Virus record (IMG/VR): IMGVR_UViG_3300022758_000104
Coordinates: 1-5,761 of that record
DNA length: 5,761 nucleotides
Origin: a virus
Strand: one strand, 5' to 3'
Shown here: positions 1 to 5,761 of the stretch, one piece after another
How positions within the stretch are numbered: position 1 is the first letter of the stretch
How the letters are laid out: every line of letters starts with the position of its first letter
Translations under genes and position numbers: made by a program
Notes under the pieces: generated by a model
Database searches by the model: none
Told to the model about the DNA's origin: nothing
Seen by the model: only the letters and a program-made list of their open reading frames with translations

Positions 1-698
1 CCATTTTCCTGTACTTGTCTTTGTCGTTTCCGTACAGCTTCTTGGTCACATATCCAGCTACGTAGTTATACGTCTCTGGCGTTGCTTGAGCTATGTCAAC
101 TGTCCCTTGTCCCCAGACTTTGACCAGTTTATCACTCGTGTAGTGTCCAAACCTTGACAGTCTGTGAATTGGCTTTAAGTCGTCTGGACGCCACCCGTAA
201 AGTATCATGTGATAGTGCGGCCTTGAGGTGTTGTCTCCATACTCTCCGGCTAGGAAGTATCTTAGAGGTGCTTTGACGGCCTTTCTGAGCCTTTTCATGA
301 ATAACTGGACATCCTCTACGCTTAAAGTTTGCACCGTTCTAGGACGCTCTGATGCGCCTCTCCATACGTTCACGCCTCCTTTGAAGATTTCCCCTGTTTC
401 TGTGTCCTGTGTTGGTACATGGTCGTCATCATAGGTCAGTGTGATGAACCAGATTCTTTTCTTGTTGTGGCCGTATGCTTCCAGCTCCATTCGTGTAGCC
501 CAGTCTTTGCGTTTGCGTAGCTTGCATCCTGTGCATTGTCCGCACGGTATCATCATTACATCTTTGCGATACATCAGGTCTTCATACTTCATTTTGGTCT
601 TATGTATTTCGTTAAAAGAAGCGAGTGAGTATACTCGCCCACTCGCCTCTCTATCATGAGGTACATAAAACCGGATTAACGGTTTGTTACACCCCCAT
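1..698 (-). CDS. VP4: Replication initiation protein (rolling-circle HUH endonuclease, gokushovirus VP4), N-terminal ~232 codons. It continues across the circular junction into 5301-5692.
   Basis: My translation of the minus strand reads MGCNKPLIRFYVPHDREASGRVYSLASFNEIHKTKMKYEDLMYRKDVMMIPCGQCTGCKLRKRKDWATRMELEAYGHNKKRIWFITLTYDDDHVP...RPHYHMILYGW...YNYVAGYVTKK. This contains the gokushovirus Rep N-terminal Cys cluster (PCGQCxGC), the HUH motif (HYHMIL) and the catalytic Tyr motif (YVAGYVTKK). ATG at 698-696 sits 2 nt after the VP2 stop and has the RBS GGAGGT. That ATG is 1 nt out of frame with the Rep body because of a G5 run at 691-695 (plus-strand C5); a run of G4 would restore MGCNKPL. As given, the first in-frame ATG is at 592-590 (MKYEDL...). 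The frame is continuous with ORF 5301..5741 (-). Confidence 0.85.
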
Positions 699-700
699 TT

Positions 701-1582
701 TTACCTCCAATAATTTCCGGTTGTTCCCATACCGATTGTTTGTCTGCGTCCTCTTTCGAGGTTTTCTGCCGCTTCCCTTCTTACTTTGTCTTGGACAGGT
801 AGGGCCGCGAGCTTTTCTTTCAGATTGATTGCTCCTTCTACTGCCGCTCCGGCAATACGCTCCATATCGCCCTTGAGTCTTACCGGGTTTGTTGTGCTTG
901 ACATGATAGCCTGCTGTATGCTCTCTGCCGCGCTTTCAGCGTGATTCCAGGCTTCACTGTGGCTGCTCCAACTGCCGTCCTGTTTGATGCCCGGCAATGC
1001 TGTTGCGCTCAGAGCGCTGCTGGATGCCATGCCCATGCTTGCGCTGCCGATTGTCCCCTGTGCGCCAGCTGGCGTGCTTGCTCCGCCCTGAGTGTATGCA
1101 AGGATAGGATTAATGCCAGCTTTTTTCATGTCTTCTACAGCTCGCTGATAAGCTGTATTGCTCATTTCCTGTTGCCAAGCTCTGTTTTTGGCTGCTTCAG
1201 CTGAATTGAATCTCATTGCGGTTTGCTGTTCGATGTGGTTATACACGCCTTGCTGGATTGCTCCTAGTGTGTTGTAGCCCATCTGCATAAGCATAGAGTT
1301 TTTGTTAAATTTTTGCTGGCTCCCCATGTTGGCTTGGCTTAGTGCGTTTGCAATGCTTGCAATTTCCTTGTTTACACTGTCGTTTGTACCGCCGTTACTG
1401 AAGCTTCCACCGCTGCTTGTGCTGTTCATCCAGCTGCTCCCGCTGCTCGAACTGTTGGCCTGCCCTGCTTGTCCGTAGCTTGAGCTTGTGCCAAACAGCT
1501 TGTTTGCTGCAACTCCTGCGATGCTAGGTATTGCGTTTAGTGCTAGTGATTTTAAGAATGGTACTAATGCCGCTAATGCCAT
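701..1582 (-). CDS. VP2: Minor capsid / DNA pilot protein VP2 (293 aa).
   Basis: Contains the motif ...[42 protein letters not shown], characteristic of gokushovirus VP2 pilot proteins. The N-terminal part is low-complexity and Ser/Gly-rich. TAA stop at 703-701 is followed 2 nt later by the VP4 ATG. ATG at 1582 follows the VP1/VP2 intergenic hairpin. Confidence 0.85.
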
Positions 1583-1612
1583 AATAAAATAACCCGGGGT
1601 TTTGCCCCGGGC
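1581..1612 (-). terminator. Intrinsic terminator or attenuator hairpin between VP1 and VP2. The minus-strand stem is CCCGGGG/CCCCGGG with loop caaaa, followed by UUAUUUUAUU.
   Basis: Minus strand reads ...TAAgaaagggggaagCCCGGGGcaaaaCCCCGGGttattttattATG. It has a 7-8 bp all-GC stem and a U-rich tail running directly into the VP2 start codon. Confidence 0.6.
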
Positions 1613-1623
1613 TTCCCCCTTTC

Positions 1624-3289
1624 TTAGTGATGGTCTACGAGACCCGGAATGCTATACATGGGCATAGGTCTCACAGATGTATTGTCGATGATGGTGTCCA
1701 TGATAAACTGAGGCTCGTTGTCCACGGCCAGAGTCCTCTGGATCTCGGAGTCTCCTCCTTCATCCACGTCTGACTCAGGCTTGGAGTCTCTTTATAGTTG
1801 TCTCCGTAGTGCCAGCTGTCCAATGTTCCCTTTGCATTCGAACGGAATTTGCCGCTGATACGGTTAGGCTTCATTCGGTACTCCGCCCCATGGCCTCTTG
1901 ATAACCAAAGGCTTGTTCGTCAGTGCTCGTACCAGTGAGATACAGCTCCTTTTTCAGAATGGCCTGCTCGCCCAGGTTTGCAAACACGGGATAGTAAAAA
2001 TCCAGATTTGTTTTGCGGCTCCACATGCGTTCCAGGCCCTGCTGGTAGGTATGGTCATGCCGGATGCAGCACACACCGATAACATAGCCGTGTTCCTCGA
2101 AACTCTTGGTGAACATACTGCCGTTGTATGGCGTAACGCTCACTGCTGCTGTGTTGCCCTGCGGACTCTCTGCAGTCGTGCCGCTGGTCTGGATGACCTG
2201 ACTCATGTTGATAGTGATGCGCGTGCCGCCCAGATACTCCGGGATTTGTATCGTTTTATCGCTGATTTTCGTGTGAAACAGCGAGTAAATCATCTCGCGG
2301 TAACGACTGCCGCCTCTGGCCAGTTGTTCGTAATATTTTTGAACTTGGAATGCCTGTCGCAGCTGGTTGATGGTCGTTGCCGTAGCGTCTTTCAGATTTG
2401 CACCGAGAAAGTGCATGTTATCTCCTGATGCCATGCTTATGGATCTTCCGTTGTACATGCTATCATATTGGTACGACATTGGCCCCGGCCAGGTGTAGTT
2501 TCCTTCTAACTTTGCCAGTTTTGTTAATTCTCTGTCTTCGTATACTGAGATGTCCGCTGCTTCGCTCATTGGGATTTTCACAGGTTCTCCCGCTTTCTGA
2601 GGGGAAGGCAAAGCCGATGTAAAGTAGTCGTGGTACTTATTTACCGGTAGCGGTCTGCCGCCTGTGTATGCGTTCTGGAGAATATATTCAAGGTCAGGCT
2701 TCGTTGCGTCCATGCCCTTGGTTTCATCATCAGTATAGTTTACGGTTGCATCTTCTTTGCTGTTGACGGCTGGATTGTCCACGTTCTGGTCTCGGAACCA
2801 CTCCTGCCAGATCATGGCGTAGGCTCTAAACGGCAGTGCGTTAACGCTGAATGCGCTGTCGGCTCCTTTGCTCACTTTGGTAGGAATGCCCATGTAGTCC
2901 ATGATGCTTCCCTCGTACGGCGCCGGTTTGTCAGCTGTGCTGGTTACTTTGACCTGCGGAATGGTGTACTCCTGAGTCTGTGCCCACGGCCCGGTGTCGT
3001 TCTCGCCCATAAACCGCTTGAAGTGGTCCCAGATGATACGGCACGGTACGTTGAAGTAGTAAATATCCATGTGGCAGTTGTCCATAACTGGGAAGATAGG
3101 CGTTGTCATACGGATAATTGCGGCCTGGTCGATGCTGAAGGTGTCACCCGGGAGCACTTCATCCACGTAAAACGGAATGAGCTGTCCCGCGTTCATTGTT
3201 AGCTTGACATCCTGTCGACGTTTGAAGCGACTTCGCGTAATGTCCAGGCGCGGGACCTGGTTGAACCCTGCGTCTTTGTTTCTGTTCAT
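1624..3289 (-). CDS. VP1: Major capsid protein VP1 (F-like jelly-roll capsid with a gokushovirus-type insertion loop), ~548 aa if two frame breaks are repaired. As given it is split into three frames: 1871..3289, 1671..1874 and ~1624..1750.
   Basis: N-terminus [51 protein letters not shown] and ...[20 protein letters not shown] are hallmark Microviridae VP1 motifs. A long variable segment follows, corresponding to the threefold insertion loop. The C-terminal continuation [31 protein letters not shown]... is in a second frame (ORF 1671..1874). The final ...[40 protein letters not shown] is in a third frame ending at TAA 1626-1624. ATG at 3289 overlaps the VP3 stop (ATGA), and RBS AGGAGG lies 10 nt upstream. 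Confidence 0.9.
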
Positions 3290-3765
3290 TCAGCGGCTTC
3301 CTCCTTTTTAGGCTCTTCAGGCTGTTTCTCCTGATAGATTCCCAGATTCTTTGCCCAGTCGATAGTTCCGAAGCTTGCCACGAATTTATCGACGTCGTTG
3401 TCAAATTTGAGCTTGATTTCCTTCGGGATTTCATCCCAGATTTGCTCGGCCCGCAGCATGATGTTCTGAAGCTCCATCAGATTCTCCGGCATCTGGGTTG
3501 CGTCCTGAAGCCCGCCACCCATGTCTGGCACCAGTCTGGCTGCAAGGTCTGGGTCGATGGATGCTCGTCGGATGATGTTTTCTAGCTTGGTCTCTTCCAG
3601 ATAGCTGTCGATTTCTGCTTGCTGGTCTATGGTCTGGTCGAGCGTTAGTACCTTTTCGCCCTTCTTGTTGAGCTCCCAAAGATACGTCCGTCTGATAGTC
3701 TCTCCGGCCTCGGTAGCTTTTGCCGTTGCGGTTTCCCTGAAGTTACTTACTGAGCGATACGCCAT
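3286..3765 (-). CDS. VP3: Internal scaffolding protein VP3 (159 aa from ATG 3765; the ORF track's TTG at 3813 is less likely).
   Basis: ATG at 3765-3763 is preceded by AAGGAGA and a 9-nt spacer. The protein MAYRSVSNFRE...NLMELQNIMLRAEQIWDEIPKEIKLKFDNDVDKFVASF...[10 protein letters not shown] is acidic and helical, the size and character of gokushovirus VP3 scaffolds. Its stop overlaps the VP1 start. Confidence 0.75.
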   Translation of the reverse strand: MAYRSVSNFRETATAKATEAGETIRRTYLWELNKKGEKVLTLDQTIDQQAEIDSYLEETKLENIIRRASIDPDLAARLVPDMGGGLQDATQMPENLMELQNIMLRAEQIWDEIPKEIKLKFDNDVDKFVASFGTIDWAKNLGIYQEKQPEEPKKEEAAE

Positions 3766-3979
3766 CGAAGATGTTCTCCTTTTCGTTCTCGAACAGGCCC
3801 GTTTTCTCGTCAAATTTTGCCAGACGTACTAATCGATAGTCGCTGGTCGTTTTGCTCATGATGTTGGCCGGGTCAGTTAATGCGATTTTGAAATTGCGTT
3901 CGGCTACCCTGTCCTCGCGCTCGGTAAAGATGGTGATGTAACCCATCACGCATTTGTCGAAGATTCCGTATACGTTCAT
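3743..3979 (-). CDS. Hypothetical protein, 78 aa.
   Basis: ATG at 3979 is preceded by a strong RBS (AAGGAGAcaaccatATG). The 3' end overlaps the VP3 start by 23 nt. No motif I can recognise. Confidence 0.55.
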   Translation of the reverse strand: MNVYGIFDKCVMGYITIFTEREDRVAERNFKIALTDPANIMSKTTSDYRLVRLAKFDEKTGLFENEKENIFDGVSLSK

Positions 3980-3991
3980 ATGGTTGTCTCC

Positions 3992-4090
3992 TTACTTGAA
4001 CCATTCTTTGATGATGTCGATTGCGATTATAACCAACACAAACGCGCTTGCCAGAGCTGCCGTTGTGATTCCTGCGAATAGTACACTCAC
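3992..4090 (-). CDS. Candidate small hydrophobic transmembrane peptide, 32 aa, with a GTG start overlapping the J-like stop (GTGA).
   Basis: My translation is MSVLFAGITTAALASAFVLVIIAIDIIKEWFK: one uninterrupted hydrophobic helix with a charged C-terminus. GAGGGGG lies 9 nt upstream of the GTG. Its TAA stop is embedded in the RBS of the next gene. It is absent from the ORF track because it is short and starts at GTG. Confidence 0.35.
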   Translation of the reverse strand: MSVLFAGITTAALASAFVLVIIAIDIIKEWFK

Positions 4091-4206
4091 AGTCTGATGC
4101 CCCCTCTCATCGCTCCGCTTCCCAGGTTAATGGCCTTGGTTTTGCGTGCTGTCTTGTTGAAGATTTTTGCGTCTTTCGACTTGCGTACTTTACTCCTCTT
4201 TGCCAT
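4087..4206 (-). CDS. Small basic DNA-binding/packaging protein (J-like; gokushovirus VP8/ORF8 analogue), 39 aa.
   Basis: My translation from ATG 4206 is MAKRSKVRKSKDAKIFNKTARKTKAINLGSGAMRGGIRL*. It is very Lys/Arg-rich, and its C-terminal RGGxRL resembles the RGGxRF/L ending of gokushovirus and SpV4 protein 8. A weak RBS (GAAGGGA) lies upstream. It overlaps the end of the 75-aa ORF by 17 nt. It falls below the ORF track length cutoff. Confidence 0.65.
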   Translation of the reverse strand: MAKRSKVRKSKDAKIFNKTARKTKAINLGSGAMRGGIRL

Positions 4207-4417
4207 GGTTGATGTCCCTTCTGAGGATTTCTACCTCAATGTCGTTTGCTGCCGCCTTCTTGCGAAACGCGAGGTCAATGTAATATTTGGCGTCTTCGAT
4301 TGTTGCGGCCTGTCGTACCAGTTTGTACGCGGCATCTATTGTCTTGTAGGTTTTCATCAATTCCTGCATAAGGTTCTCGTCGGTCTGGTCTCTTGCATTC
4401 CATGTTTTCTTCTCCAT
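4190..4417 (-). CDS. Hypothetical protein, 75 aa; by position a candidate VP5-like protein.
   Basis: ATG at 4417 is preceded by GGAGA and a 6-nt spacer. The protein is charged and helical (MEKKTWNARDQTDENLMQELMKTYKTIDAAYKLVRQAATIEDAKYY...). It lies immediately upstream of the J-like gene, where VP5 sits in classical gokushoviruses; this is inferred from position only. Confidence 0.5.
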   Translation of the reverse strand: MEKKTWNARDQTDENLMQELMKTYKTIDAAYKLVRQAATIEDAKYYIDLAFRKKAAANDIEVEILRRDINHGKEE

Positions 4418-4603
4418 GTTAAGTCTCCGTTTCGTTTTCTGTTACTGTGTGGTAGATTTTGTCCAGCATCGCAAGGATTTTTTCGATTTTGTCAAACAGC
4501 GTTTTGATTTCTTGGAGAGTCAGAGCGGTTCACCTCTTTCGTAAAGTTATTTTGTAAAAATGGAATTTGTCAGAGGAACTTCTTTGCTGCTTAACTGTTT
4601 TTG

Positions 4604-4810
4604 TTATATCAAAAAAAAGAGAGATTGGCAATCCCTCTTTTCCGGTTTTTTATTTCGTTCGTCGAGTTCCTTTTTGACTTCTTCGTATACGTATCTGCAA
4701 CGGTGTTCTTTGACTTTGCATGGGCAGCTCTCACAATCCCCTTTACAATATTCGTATCTGTACTTCATGTAGAGTAACTGTTTGTTACTTGCAAACCGTA
4801 TACTAGTCAT
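4604..4810 (-). CDS. Hypothetical Cys-rich small protein, 68 aa; possible zinc-binding fold.
   Basis: Excellent RBS (AAAGGAGAacaaatATG). The motif YCKGDCESCPCKVKEHRC (C-x3-C-x2-C-x-C...H-x-C) suggests metal binding. The C-terminal codons run through a terminator hairpin and a T8 run, so the exact 3' end is uncertain. Confidence 0.5.
   Translation of the reverse strand: MTSIRFASNKQLLYMKYRYEYCKGDCESCPCKVKEHRCRYVYEEVKKELDERNKKPEKRDCQSLFFLI
4611..4639 (-). terminator. Intrinsic terminator: a 9-bp stem (AAGAGGGAU/AUCUCUCUU with one G-U pair) and 5-nt loop, followed by U8.
   Basis: Minus strand reads ccggaAAGAGGGATtgccaATCTCTCTTtttttt. It lies at the 3' end of the 68-aa ORF. The plus strand carries the same hairpin followed by cttttccggtttttt, so it may act in both directions. 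Confidence 0.55.
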
Positions 4811-4874
4811 ATTTGTTCTCCTTTACTGTGAAGTAGCTTGCTATGCGCTGAACTTGGTACAGCTCTGTGATTTT

Positions 4875-4903
4875 ATTGTACCGTATTTTTAGAAGAAAGT
4901 CGA
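4875..4903 (-). promoter_or_regulatory. Candidate sigma70-type promoter for the small-gene/structural operon: -35 TCGACT, 17-bp spacer, -10 TACAAT.
   Basis: Minus strand reads ...TCGACTttcttctaaaaatacggTACAATaaaatcacag..., about 65 nt upstream of the 68-aa gene ATG. This is hexamer matching only, and the host is unknown. Confidence 0.25.
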
Positions 4904-4942
4904 GATTTTTTGAAAAAAAGTTAGAAGAATTTTGCATTGAAG

Positions 4943-5009
4943 GTCATGCGCTAGGCGCGGTGCGCCGTACGAAGAGCATGACGTAACTTTCCGGTCAGCT
5001 GCCGAGCTG
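4943..5009. promoter_or_regulatory. GC-rich cluster of nested palindromes in an AT-rich intergenic region. GTCATGC/GCATGAC (4943-4949 and 4976-4982) enclose the tight hairpin GGCGCggtGCGCC (4954-4966). CAGCTgccgAGCTG follows at 4996-5009.
   Basis: Inverted repeats read directly from the sequence. Candidate origin, cruciform or protein-binding site. Confidence 0.4.
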
Positions 5010-5023
5010 CCTCTGATTGAGTT

Positions 5024-5306
5024 TTCAACACTTTTAACACTTTCAACAGGTTTTCCACAAAAAGTTGCACAAATGGTTTTGTGCATATTGCTATACTTTC
5101 AACAATTCAACAAGTTTTCAACAAAATTTTCAACATCAAAATGATTCATAAAATATCGTTCCATGGATAAAAATTTATAGTATTCAACATTTCAACACTC
5201 CCTACTACTGCTACTACAACAAGTAAATAATAAAATAATAAAAATCGTGCGTGCATGTGCGCGATTACGTGCGCGTGCGCGAACGATTCAACAAAATAAA
5301 TCAACA
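5024..5306. repeat. Iteron-like array: at least 9 exact copies of TTCAACA plus about 4 one-mismatch variants. On the viral strand the motif reads TGTTGAA(A).
   Basis: Exact copies on the plus strand at 5024, 5042, 5098, 5106, 5117, 5129, 5183, 5191 and 5287. Variants: tttaaca at 5033, ttccaca at 5053, tacaaca at ~5214, atcaaca at 5300. Several are adjacent pairs. A given 7-mer is expected about 0.02 times in 280 bp. Confidence 0.7.
5244..5283. other. GC-rich alternating purine/pyrimidine tract (cgtgcgtgcatgtgcgcgattacgtgcgcgtgcgcg) inside the iteron region, flanked by A/T runs.
   Basis: Read directly from the sequence. It has Z-DNA-like CG/TG alternation and an imperfect direct repeat of CGTGCG(C/T)G units. 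It is a sharp compositional island within AT-rich DNA. Confidence 0.4.
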
Positions 5307-5761
5307 AAATAAAAAATACTCAGCCAAGTATATATACTTGATAGTTACTTGGCTGAGTGACACCAGAGCTAAAAAACGCCCCTTTGCTTTGGACATCTTC
5401 TTCTTCATGGCTGCTTCTTTATCGGCTAGTTGTTCGGCATACTGTTTGTCAGTTTCCATGTTTCTTTCAATTAGGGACGCGATGGCTTTTTCTTGTCGAT
5501 ACTTCTTAATTCTCCACGCCTTTTCAGGATTTTCTGCTTCCAGCTTTCGCCAATAATATTCTGGAATGGCTGCTCTCTTGCCGTTTGTCAGCTGGATGTA
5601 CCCCTGCTGCCAGAGTCTTTCTTGGTTCTTCTGGAACCATTCGTCTCCGAGTCCTGGCTTTCGGCTCATTACGCAGAATGGCGGTATGAGTCCCATTTTC
5701 CTGTACTTGTCTTTGTCGTTTCCGTACAGCTTCTTGGTCACATATCCAGCTACGTAGTTAT
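5301..5761 (-). CDS. VP4: Replication initiation protein VP4, C-terminal part. Bases 5693-5761 duplicate 1-69; the stop codon is at 5303-5301.
   Basis: The ORF track protein ...KLYGNDKDKYRKMGLIPPFCVMSRKPGLGDEWFQKNQERLWQQGYIQLTNGKRAAIPEYYWRKLEAENPEKAW... matches the conserved C-terminal region of Microviridae Rep proteins. It is in frame with the N-terminal part across the 5692/1 junction, giving about 362 aa in total. The last ~25 aa (RFLALVSLSQVTIKYIYLAEYFLFC) are translated through a terminator hairpin and may be artefactual. Confidence 0.8.
   Translation of the reverse strand, partial: NYVAGYVTKKLYGNDKDKYRKMGLIPPFCVMSRKPGLGDEWFQKNQERLWQQGYIQLTNGKRAAIPEYYWRKLEAENPEKAWRIKKYRQEKAIASLIERNMETDKQYAEQLADKEAAMKKKMSKAKGRFLALVSLSQVTIKYIYLAEYFLFC
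5311..5357 (-). terminator. Intrinsic terminator after VP4: a 12-bp stem (CTCAGCCAAGTA/TACTTGGCTGAG) and 15-nt loop, followed by UAUUUUUUAUUUUGUU.
   Basis: Minus strand reads CTCAGCCAAGTAactatcaagtatataTACTTGGCTGAGtattttttattttgttga. The stem is at plus 5319-5330 and 5346-5357, and the U-tract is at 5303-5318. It overlaps the annotated VP4 3' end. Confidence 0.6.
5693..5761. repeat. Terminal redundancy: an exact 69-bp duplicate of window positions 1-69. It is an artefact of linearising a circular genome, not a biological repeat.
   Basis: Direct comparison of the two window ends shows identical strings: ccattttcctgtacttgtctttgtcgtttccgtacagcttcttggtcacatatccagctacgtagttat. Confidence 0.95.

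Follow-up and report, generated by a model that had tools for sequence, protein, structure and literature searches.

The window, by which we mean the whole stretch of 5,761 nucleotides analysed here (positions 1 to 5,761 of the IMG/VR virus record IMGVR_UViG_3300022758_000104), holds the whole circular genome of a human-gut gokushovirus (Microviridae). The 69 nt at its two ends are identical, so that the circle closes at 5692 nt and the overlap is written twice. The circle lies within the range of approximately 4.5 to 6 kb expected of Gokushovirinae, and homologues of VP1 to VP5 lie on one strand, as is also expected; all five genes (VP1, VP2, VP3, VP4, and VP5) were located on the minus strand when proteins from a close relative (L067) served as tblastn queries. 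Gene order is the usual one for gokushoviruses, with order and sizes (VP1-VP2-VP4 ... VP5-VP3) as in the GenBank records KT264788 and MG945657. These two records were the top megablast matches (81%–83% nucleotide identity to the window), and the megablast matches were solely to Microviridae/Gokushovirus records, with human, pig, and monkey faeces as their sources. VP4, which encodes the replication initiator, spans the circle junction, and a linear list of open reading frames (ORFs) therefore holds just a 146-amino-acid piece of it.

Positions 4864–5281 contain no long ORF, yet match many otherwise distant gokushovirus records at 75%–93% nucleotide identity, and the matching database regions carry the annotation "none." This stretch may be a conserved non-coding element, for example a replication origin or a regulatory region; a search of Rfam returned no RNA family in the window, 4864–5281 included. 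Two small overlapping minus-strand ORFs are found in 4090–4408, one of 75 amino acids (4190–4417) and one of approximately 39 amino acids (4090–4206). Both are called as genes in two relatives as well (L066 and L067; 82%–92% amino acid identity), and Pfam gives no match for either. An ENA scaffold (L064; ERZ28623529 scaffold_3411) was compared with the window in three parts, positions 1–900, 3300–4200, and the remainder: identity is 98%–100% in the VP4/VP2-end and VP3/VP5 regions and 92%–94% elsewhere, a mosaic that suggests recent recombination among gut gokushoviruses.

As written, the major capsid protein gene, VP1, is distributed over three successive frames (Table 1). The VP1 of a relative matched the window by tblastn as residues 1–466, 468–511, and 512–554, with 93%–94% identity in each segment and residue 467 alone lost. 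The preliminary description of this DNA had given a 472-amino-acid VP1 ORF, its stop at TGA 1873–1871, and a run of CCCC on the plus strand at 1886–1889, all of which is borne out, the ORF lying at 3289..1871 (minus strand). It had also reported that a conserved continuation is open in the -1 frame from the same spot, and the frame one base upstream does indeed read it, from about position 1886, in agreement with tblastn. The last six residues of the 472-amino-acid ORF, MGRSTE, are out-of-frame read-through, and the Phage_F profile covers this ORF just from 2 to 417 of its 501 positions (369.6 bits; cut-off 25). The third frame runs GDSEIQRTL...GLVDHH*, and its TAA is the true end of VP1. No uninterrupted ORF passes through the conserved C-terminal block (...GLVDHH*) in the window, where three frames are needed to read it; we would attribute this to sequence error and not to different biology.

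Table 1. Position, strand, and character of the features discussed in the text (window coordinates)
Feature	Position	Strand	Description
VP1, first frame	1871..3289	-	472-amino-acid ORF; residues 1–466 homologous to relatives
VP1, second frame	1755..1886	-	44 codons; 93% identity (tblastn) to residues 468–511 of a relative
VP1, third frame	1624..1755	-	43 codons, then TAA 1626–1624; 93% identity (tblastn) to residues 512–554
Break 1 lesion	1886..1895	-	window GCCATGGGGC, closest relatives GCATGGGC; net +2 nt
Break 2 lesion	1755..1756	-	one base absent between 1756 and 1755
VP4 start lesion	692..698	-	window ATGGGGGTGT, relatives ATGGGGTGT or ATGGGATGC
VP4 stop lesion	5379..5382	-	window AAAGGGGCGTTTTTTAGCTC, 17 relatives AAAGGGCGTTTTTTAGCTC
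Terminator-like hairpin	1591..1613	-	9-bp stem with 7 G-C pairs, T-rich tail
Terminal direct repeat, 69 nt	1..69 = 5693–5761		exact; whole-window ends

The surroundings of the gene fit an intact VP1. Between the full-length VP1 stop and the VP2 start at 1582 lies a terminator-like hairpin (AGCCCGGGG-CAAAA-CCCCGGGTT, followed by the T-rich tail), which is kept in aligned relatives. This strong hairpin adjoins the full-length stop at 1624, not the premature stop at 1871.

To describe the two breaks we drew on a set of 121 related loci from GenBank, IMG/VR, ENA, and JGI, the DNA alignments at the breaks being made with the GenBank and IMG/VR relatives. At break 1 the closest relatives have the codons CAG GAA GCA TGG GCA GAA TAC (Q E A W A E Y), and the window has CAA GAG GCC ATG GGG CGG AGT AC. 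The site encoding A-W-A is GCATGGGCA in the closest relatives and GCCATGGGGCG in the window, a difference of two one-base run expansions, C to CC and GGG to GGGG; the extra bases are one C (plus-strand GG, 1894–1895) and one G (plus-strand CCCC, 1886–1889). These closest relatives are L003, L004, L005, and L011, with amino acid identities over residues 1–466 of 93%–97% for the first three and 85% for L011. Seven of the 11 relatives compared support these window-specific insertions, and three more place a 2-nt gap. The lesion had previously been read as one missing G within 1880–1892. The DNA alignments contradict this, the window being 2 nt longer, not 1 nt shorter, against all relatives; the extra G does fall inside that interval, but the second extra base lies just outside it. 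At break 2, relatives have GAAGGA[A/G]GGAGAC and the window has GAAGGA-GGAGAC, a contraction of either AA to A or GGG to GG; alignment with each of the 11 relatives compared opens a gap of 1 nt, located at either 1757 or 1756. The deletion happens to form AAGGAGG, a Shine-Dalgarno-like string.

In relatives with a complete 3' end, the VP1 tail from FGYQE to the stop is uninterrupted and exactly 94 amino acids long (94 of 94). All 101 relatives that could be read at break 1 have E-[A/C/R]-W-[A/S]-EYR, the central tripeptide being AWA, CWA, RWA, or AWS and the tryptophan invariant. The protein ends in ...GLVDHH* in nearly all listed relatives, three being substituted here (GLDDHH or GLADHH). The possibility, raised in the preliminary description, that reference VP1 proteins really end near EAMG does not hold, since all relatives, and the solved capsids 8DES and 9CGM, continue for about 88 residues. 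The arrangement in the window has no counterpart in the collections searched. No record was found of its exact 472-amino-acid VP1 product or of its exact VP2, IMG/VR does not contain the exact 40-mer that spans break 1, and an indel-tolerant pattern retrieved nothing from the JGI metagenome collection. Nor did these collections yield the VP1 3' end (1600–2000) of the same strain, broken or intact, the best match having 90%–93% nucleotide identity.

Homology-guided repair, in which the two extra bases of break 1 are dropped and one base is added at break 2, gives a VP1 of 554 amino acids. Its three best matches among 5.8 billion proteins, all of them metagenomic, are also 554 amino acids long and share 95%, 94%, and 93% identity with it at 100% coverage. 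The repaired protein spans 2–501 of the 501 positions of Phage_F (PF02305; 471.7 bits against a cut-off of 25, E = 3.8e-141), and its alignment with the solved gokushovirus capsids 8DES_A and 9CGM_A extends to their C-terminal residues; in these capsids the residue equivalent to the break 1 tryptophan is aromatic (Y in 8DES, W in 9CGM). Codon differences from nine relatives are mostly synonymous, with 8–17 synonymous versus 2–5 non-synonymous in the second-frame segment and 5–21 versus 1–3 in the third-frame segment, and the 66 codons that precede the break show the same pattern. At columns that are otherwise invariant, no singleton residue occurs in the repaired VP1, whereas 42 distinct full-length relatives average 1.0 such residues, with up to 6 in one protein. 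Together, the mostly synonymous differences and the lack of singleton substitutions indicate that the indels are the only damage in VP1. Judged by comparison of the sequences, the conserved continuation in the shifted frames is no chance resemblance. The repaired gene is an ordinary gokushovirus VP1 and member of the Phage_F family, and the virus itself most likely makes VP1 as a single unbroken chain of 554 amino acids that ends in GLVDHH*.

VP4 is affected at both ends. At its start, directly after the ATG, GGGG has become GGGGG at 692–696, and the window (ATGGGGGTGTAA) reads MGV*; the body of the protein (GCNKPLIRF...) continues in the next frame, without a start codon of its own, and tblastn matched VP4 residues 2–339 in the window with Met1 unmatched. 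The N-terminus is MGC[NS]KP in all 85 relatives. Over window positions 1–996, L064 is 99.5% identical to the window, from which it differs by four substitutions and a single indel, the window's extra G at 692–696. At the other end of the gene, five codons upstream of the stop, GGG has become GGGG at 5379–5382, with the result that the stop is lost and a tail of 23 amino acids is added (..GRFLALVSLSQVTIKYIYLAEYFLFC*). In 17 relatives the string at this site is identical to that of the window minus one G, and the C-terminus MSKAKG[VILT]F* is found in 91 of 91 relatives. L064 is itself unusual in this region, having a 19-nt insertion (its positions 1244–1262, near window position 5445) close to the 3' end of VP4, which shifts the frame; its VP4 is 329 amino acids long, compared with 339 in relatives.

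The whole window was scanned against 12 relatives for window-specific indels of a length that is not a multiple of three. This recovered the VP1 and VP4 lesions; otherwise just indels in a variable non-coding stretch (4419–4578) survived checking. Two further candidates were rejected. In VP2, blastn placed mutually compensating +1 and -1 indels at 1219–1231, but these reflect misalignment of a divergent stretch, VP2 being intact by MAFFT alignment and translation. An apparent extra A at window position 3721 relative to L065 is a deletion in L065 itself, the window and L064 being in agreement. That ENA contig, of 1.2x coverage, is one A short of an AAAA run within VP3 at about its position 347, and the missing A is likely a homopolymer error of the contig. 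Another record, L105 (CYGL01001911.1), carries at least eight partial VP1 pieces in differing frames and positions and seems to mix related strains through chimerism or mis-assembly.

The preliminary description had offered homopolymer error or a defective genome copy as the two explanations of the VP1 break, and this pair is upheld here. All five lesions are single-base changes in run length (1 to 2, 3 to 4, 3 to 4, 4 to 5, and either 2 to 1 or 3 to 2), and all are private to the window, each being absent from all relatives examined (0 of 85–101). Of the four insertions, three lengthen a coding-strand G run that already had at least 3 bases, an outcome with a chance of approximately 0.011 for each random one-base insertion. 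This points to a run-specific process, for which base-calling or consensus error and replication slippage would both be suitable candidates. Polymerase slippage in vivo prefers the same contexts, and run context alone cannot tell error from mutation. The same strand has ten further runs of at least 4 Gs, and none of these is among the window-specific indels.

We regard systematic homopolymer-length miscalls in the written sequence, introduced during sequencing, base-calling, or consensus building, as the probable explanation. On the coding (minus) strand, break 1 of VP1 would comprise two one-base over-calls, C to CC at 1894–1895 and GGG to GGGG at 1886–1889, and break 2 a one-base under-call between 1756 and 1755, while the VP4 start and stop would have been displaced by G over-calls at 692–696 and 5379–5382. 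The corrected minus-strand sequences would be ...GAGGCATGGGCGGAGTAC..., ...ATGAAGGA[A/G]GGAGAC..., and ...AAAATGGGGTGTAAC.... An artefact is favoured because five independent frame-disrupting changes have accumulated in two essential genes without substitution damage, a combination that is hard to reconcile with a replicating virus, and because the ratio of one indel to four substitutions relative to the 99.5%-identical L064 fits an indel-specific error better than decay. The strongest argument for a systematic error is the occurrence of the same type of lesion twice in VP4. Five homopolymer indels would be unusual if the contig derives from deep Illumina data. Many gut Microviridae genomes have been assembled from pyrosequencing viromes, and pyrosequencing errors have been named as an issue there (PMC3394797, Roux et al. 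2012); a literature search combining Microviridae, homopolymer, and frameshift returned nothing specific to the case of the window.

The alternative that survives best, although we consider it unlikely, is that the indels are real and that slippage at short runs has recently inactivated VP1 and VP4, leaving either a defective genome or the consensus of a defective minor variant. Such a genome could persist just briefly, or through complementation by co-infecting intact genomes. The lesions are, after all, present in the sequence as given. Replication slippage also targets homopolymers, and the run bias seen here does not indicate its cause. Single-stranded DNA phages have high mutation rates, which would favour this reading, and aberrant public assemblies exist in the group, as the 19-nt insertion that truncates VP4 in L064 and the VP1 patchwork of L105 illustrate. 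What speaks against real indels is that reading frames have been disrupted five independent times, yet VP1 nowhere shows a nonsense mutation or an unusual missense substitution, whereas neutral decay should yield more substitutions than indels. Both of the genes struck are essential. The protein A of phiX174 is described as preferentially cis-acting and, by analogy, a genome without VP4 might be poorly rescued by a helper. Furthermore, no lesion is shared by any of the approximately 100 relatives, the 99.5%-identical partial genome included. That a real defective gokushovirus, abundant enough to assemble closed, spreads as a parasite of intact co-infecting relatives is very improbable, though defective interfering genomes might be an analogue for spread of this kind. 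A variant in which VP1 is expressed through slippage on the short G runs is less likely.

The repair suggested in the preliminary description, a single dropped G with a true run of GGGGG, invokes one event at the break 1 site rather than two, and it does restore the frame (...EAMGAEYR...), giving a protein of 555 amino acids. We nevertheless think it has little chance of being correct. It demands a 3-nt insertion that turns the tryptophan invariant in 101 of 101 relatives into Met-Gly, the intact A-W-A being GCATGGGCG; both solved capsids have an aromatic residue at the corresponding place; the closest proteins have 554 amino acids, not 555; and the other run errors of the genome are mostly insertions.

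Programmed recoding would need tRNA-Gly to slip by -1 on G-GGG at break 1, with EAMG-AEYR as the resulting junction, and a second -1 shift at break 2, with the truncated 472-amino-acid VP1 perhaps a regulated product. The -1 slip on G GGG at 1886–1889 re-pairs perfectly, and the Shine-Dalgarno-like AAGGAGG is formed at break 2. The preliminary description had nevertheless held programmed frameshifting to be very unlikely, a judgement with which our tests for a heptamer, for structure, and for conservation all agree, and we find recoding scarcely credible. The shifted arrangement is found in none of the 94 relatives, the site thus being unconserved. The heptamer X XXY YYZ is absent in frame at both breaks (GCC ATG GGG CGG at break 1, AAG GAG GAG ACT at break 2), re-pairing of GAG on GGA at break 2 is mismatched, and the stretches that follow the two breaks (96 and 93 nt) are no more stably folded than shuffled controls (z = -0.79 and +0.13). 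VP4 would require more events, in the opposite (+1) direction, and the break 1 junction would swap out the invariant tryptophan. An alternative code in which TGA is read as tryptophan, as in Spiroplasma phages, was rejected, the conserved continuation lying in another frame and not past a stop in the same frame.

Nothing in the frame break is new biology, and it most likely does not belong to the virus itself. Gene callers run on the uncorrected sequence would report a truncated 472-amino-acid capsid protein with orphan ORFs of 67 and 47 amino acids, together with a VP4 that lacks a start codon and carries a false 23-amino-acid extension, and erroneous VP1 and VP4 products of this sort would pollute protein clusters and phylogenies. 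The value of the present analysis is thus one of curation: five corrected bases give back an ordinary gokushovirus. Homology should decide which frame-restoring edit is made; here the shortest one (one G) would produce a protein seen in none of the relatives. Real indels would make the window a rare documented case of a defective single-stranded DNA phage genome in circulation in the gut, and a moderately interesting one.

Compared with VP1 of the Gokushovirinae (PF02305, 8DES, and 9CGM), the window gene as written differs in being split over three frames, without Trp467, and none of its relatives is split. It resembles the -1 frameshifting of lambda G/GT and dnaX in having a shifted frame with conserved coding and a G run that could allow re-pairing, but differs from both in its lack of a slippery heptamer, of a stimulatory structure, and of conservation in relatives, and in having two consecutive shifts into a third frame together with similar lesions in VP4. 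Set beside the homopolymer errors of 454, Ion Torrent, nanopore, and PacBio sequencing, the window departs in its bias, four of the five changes being insertions and three of these lying in G runs, a combination that fits no single platform we could confidently name; it resembles them in that the lesions are single-base, scattered over two genes, unique to the contig, and free of accompanying substitutions.
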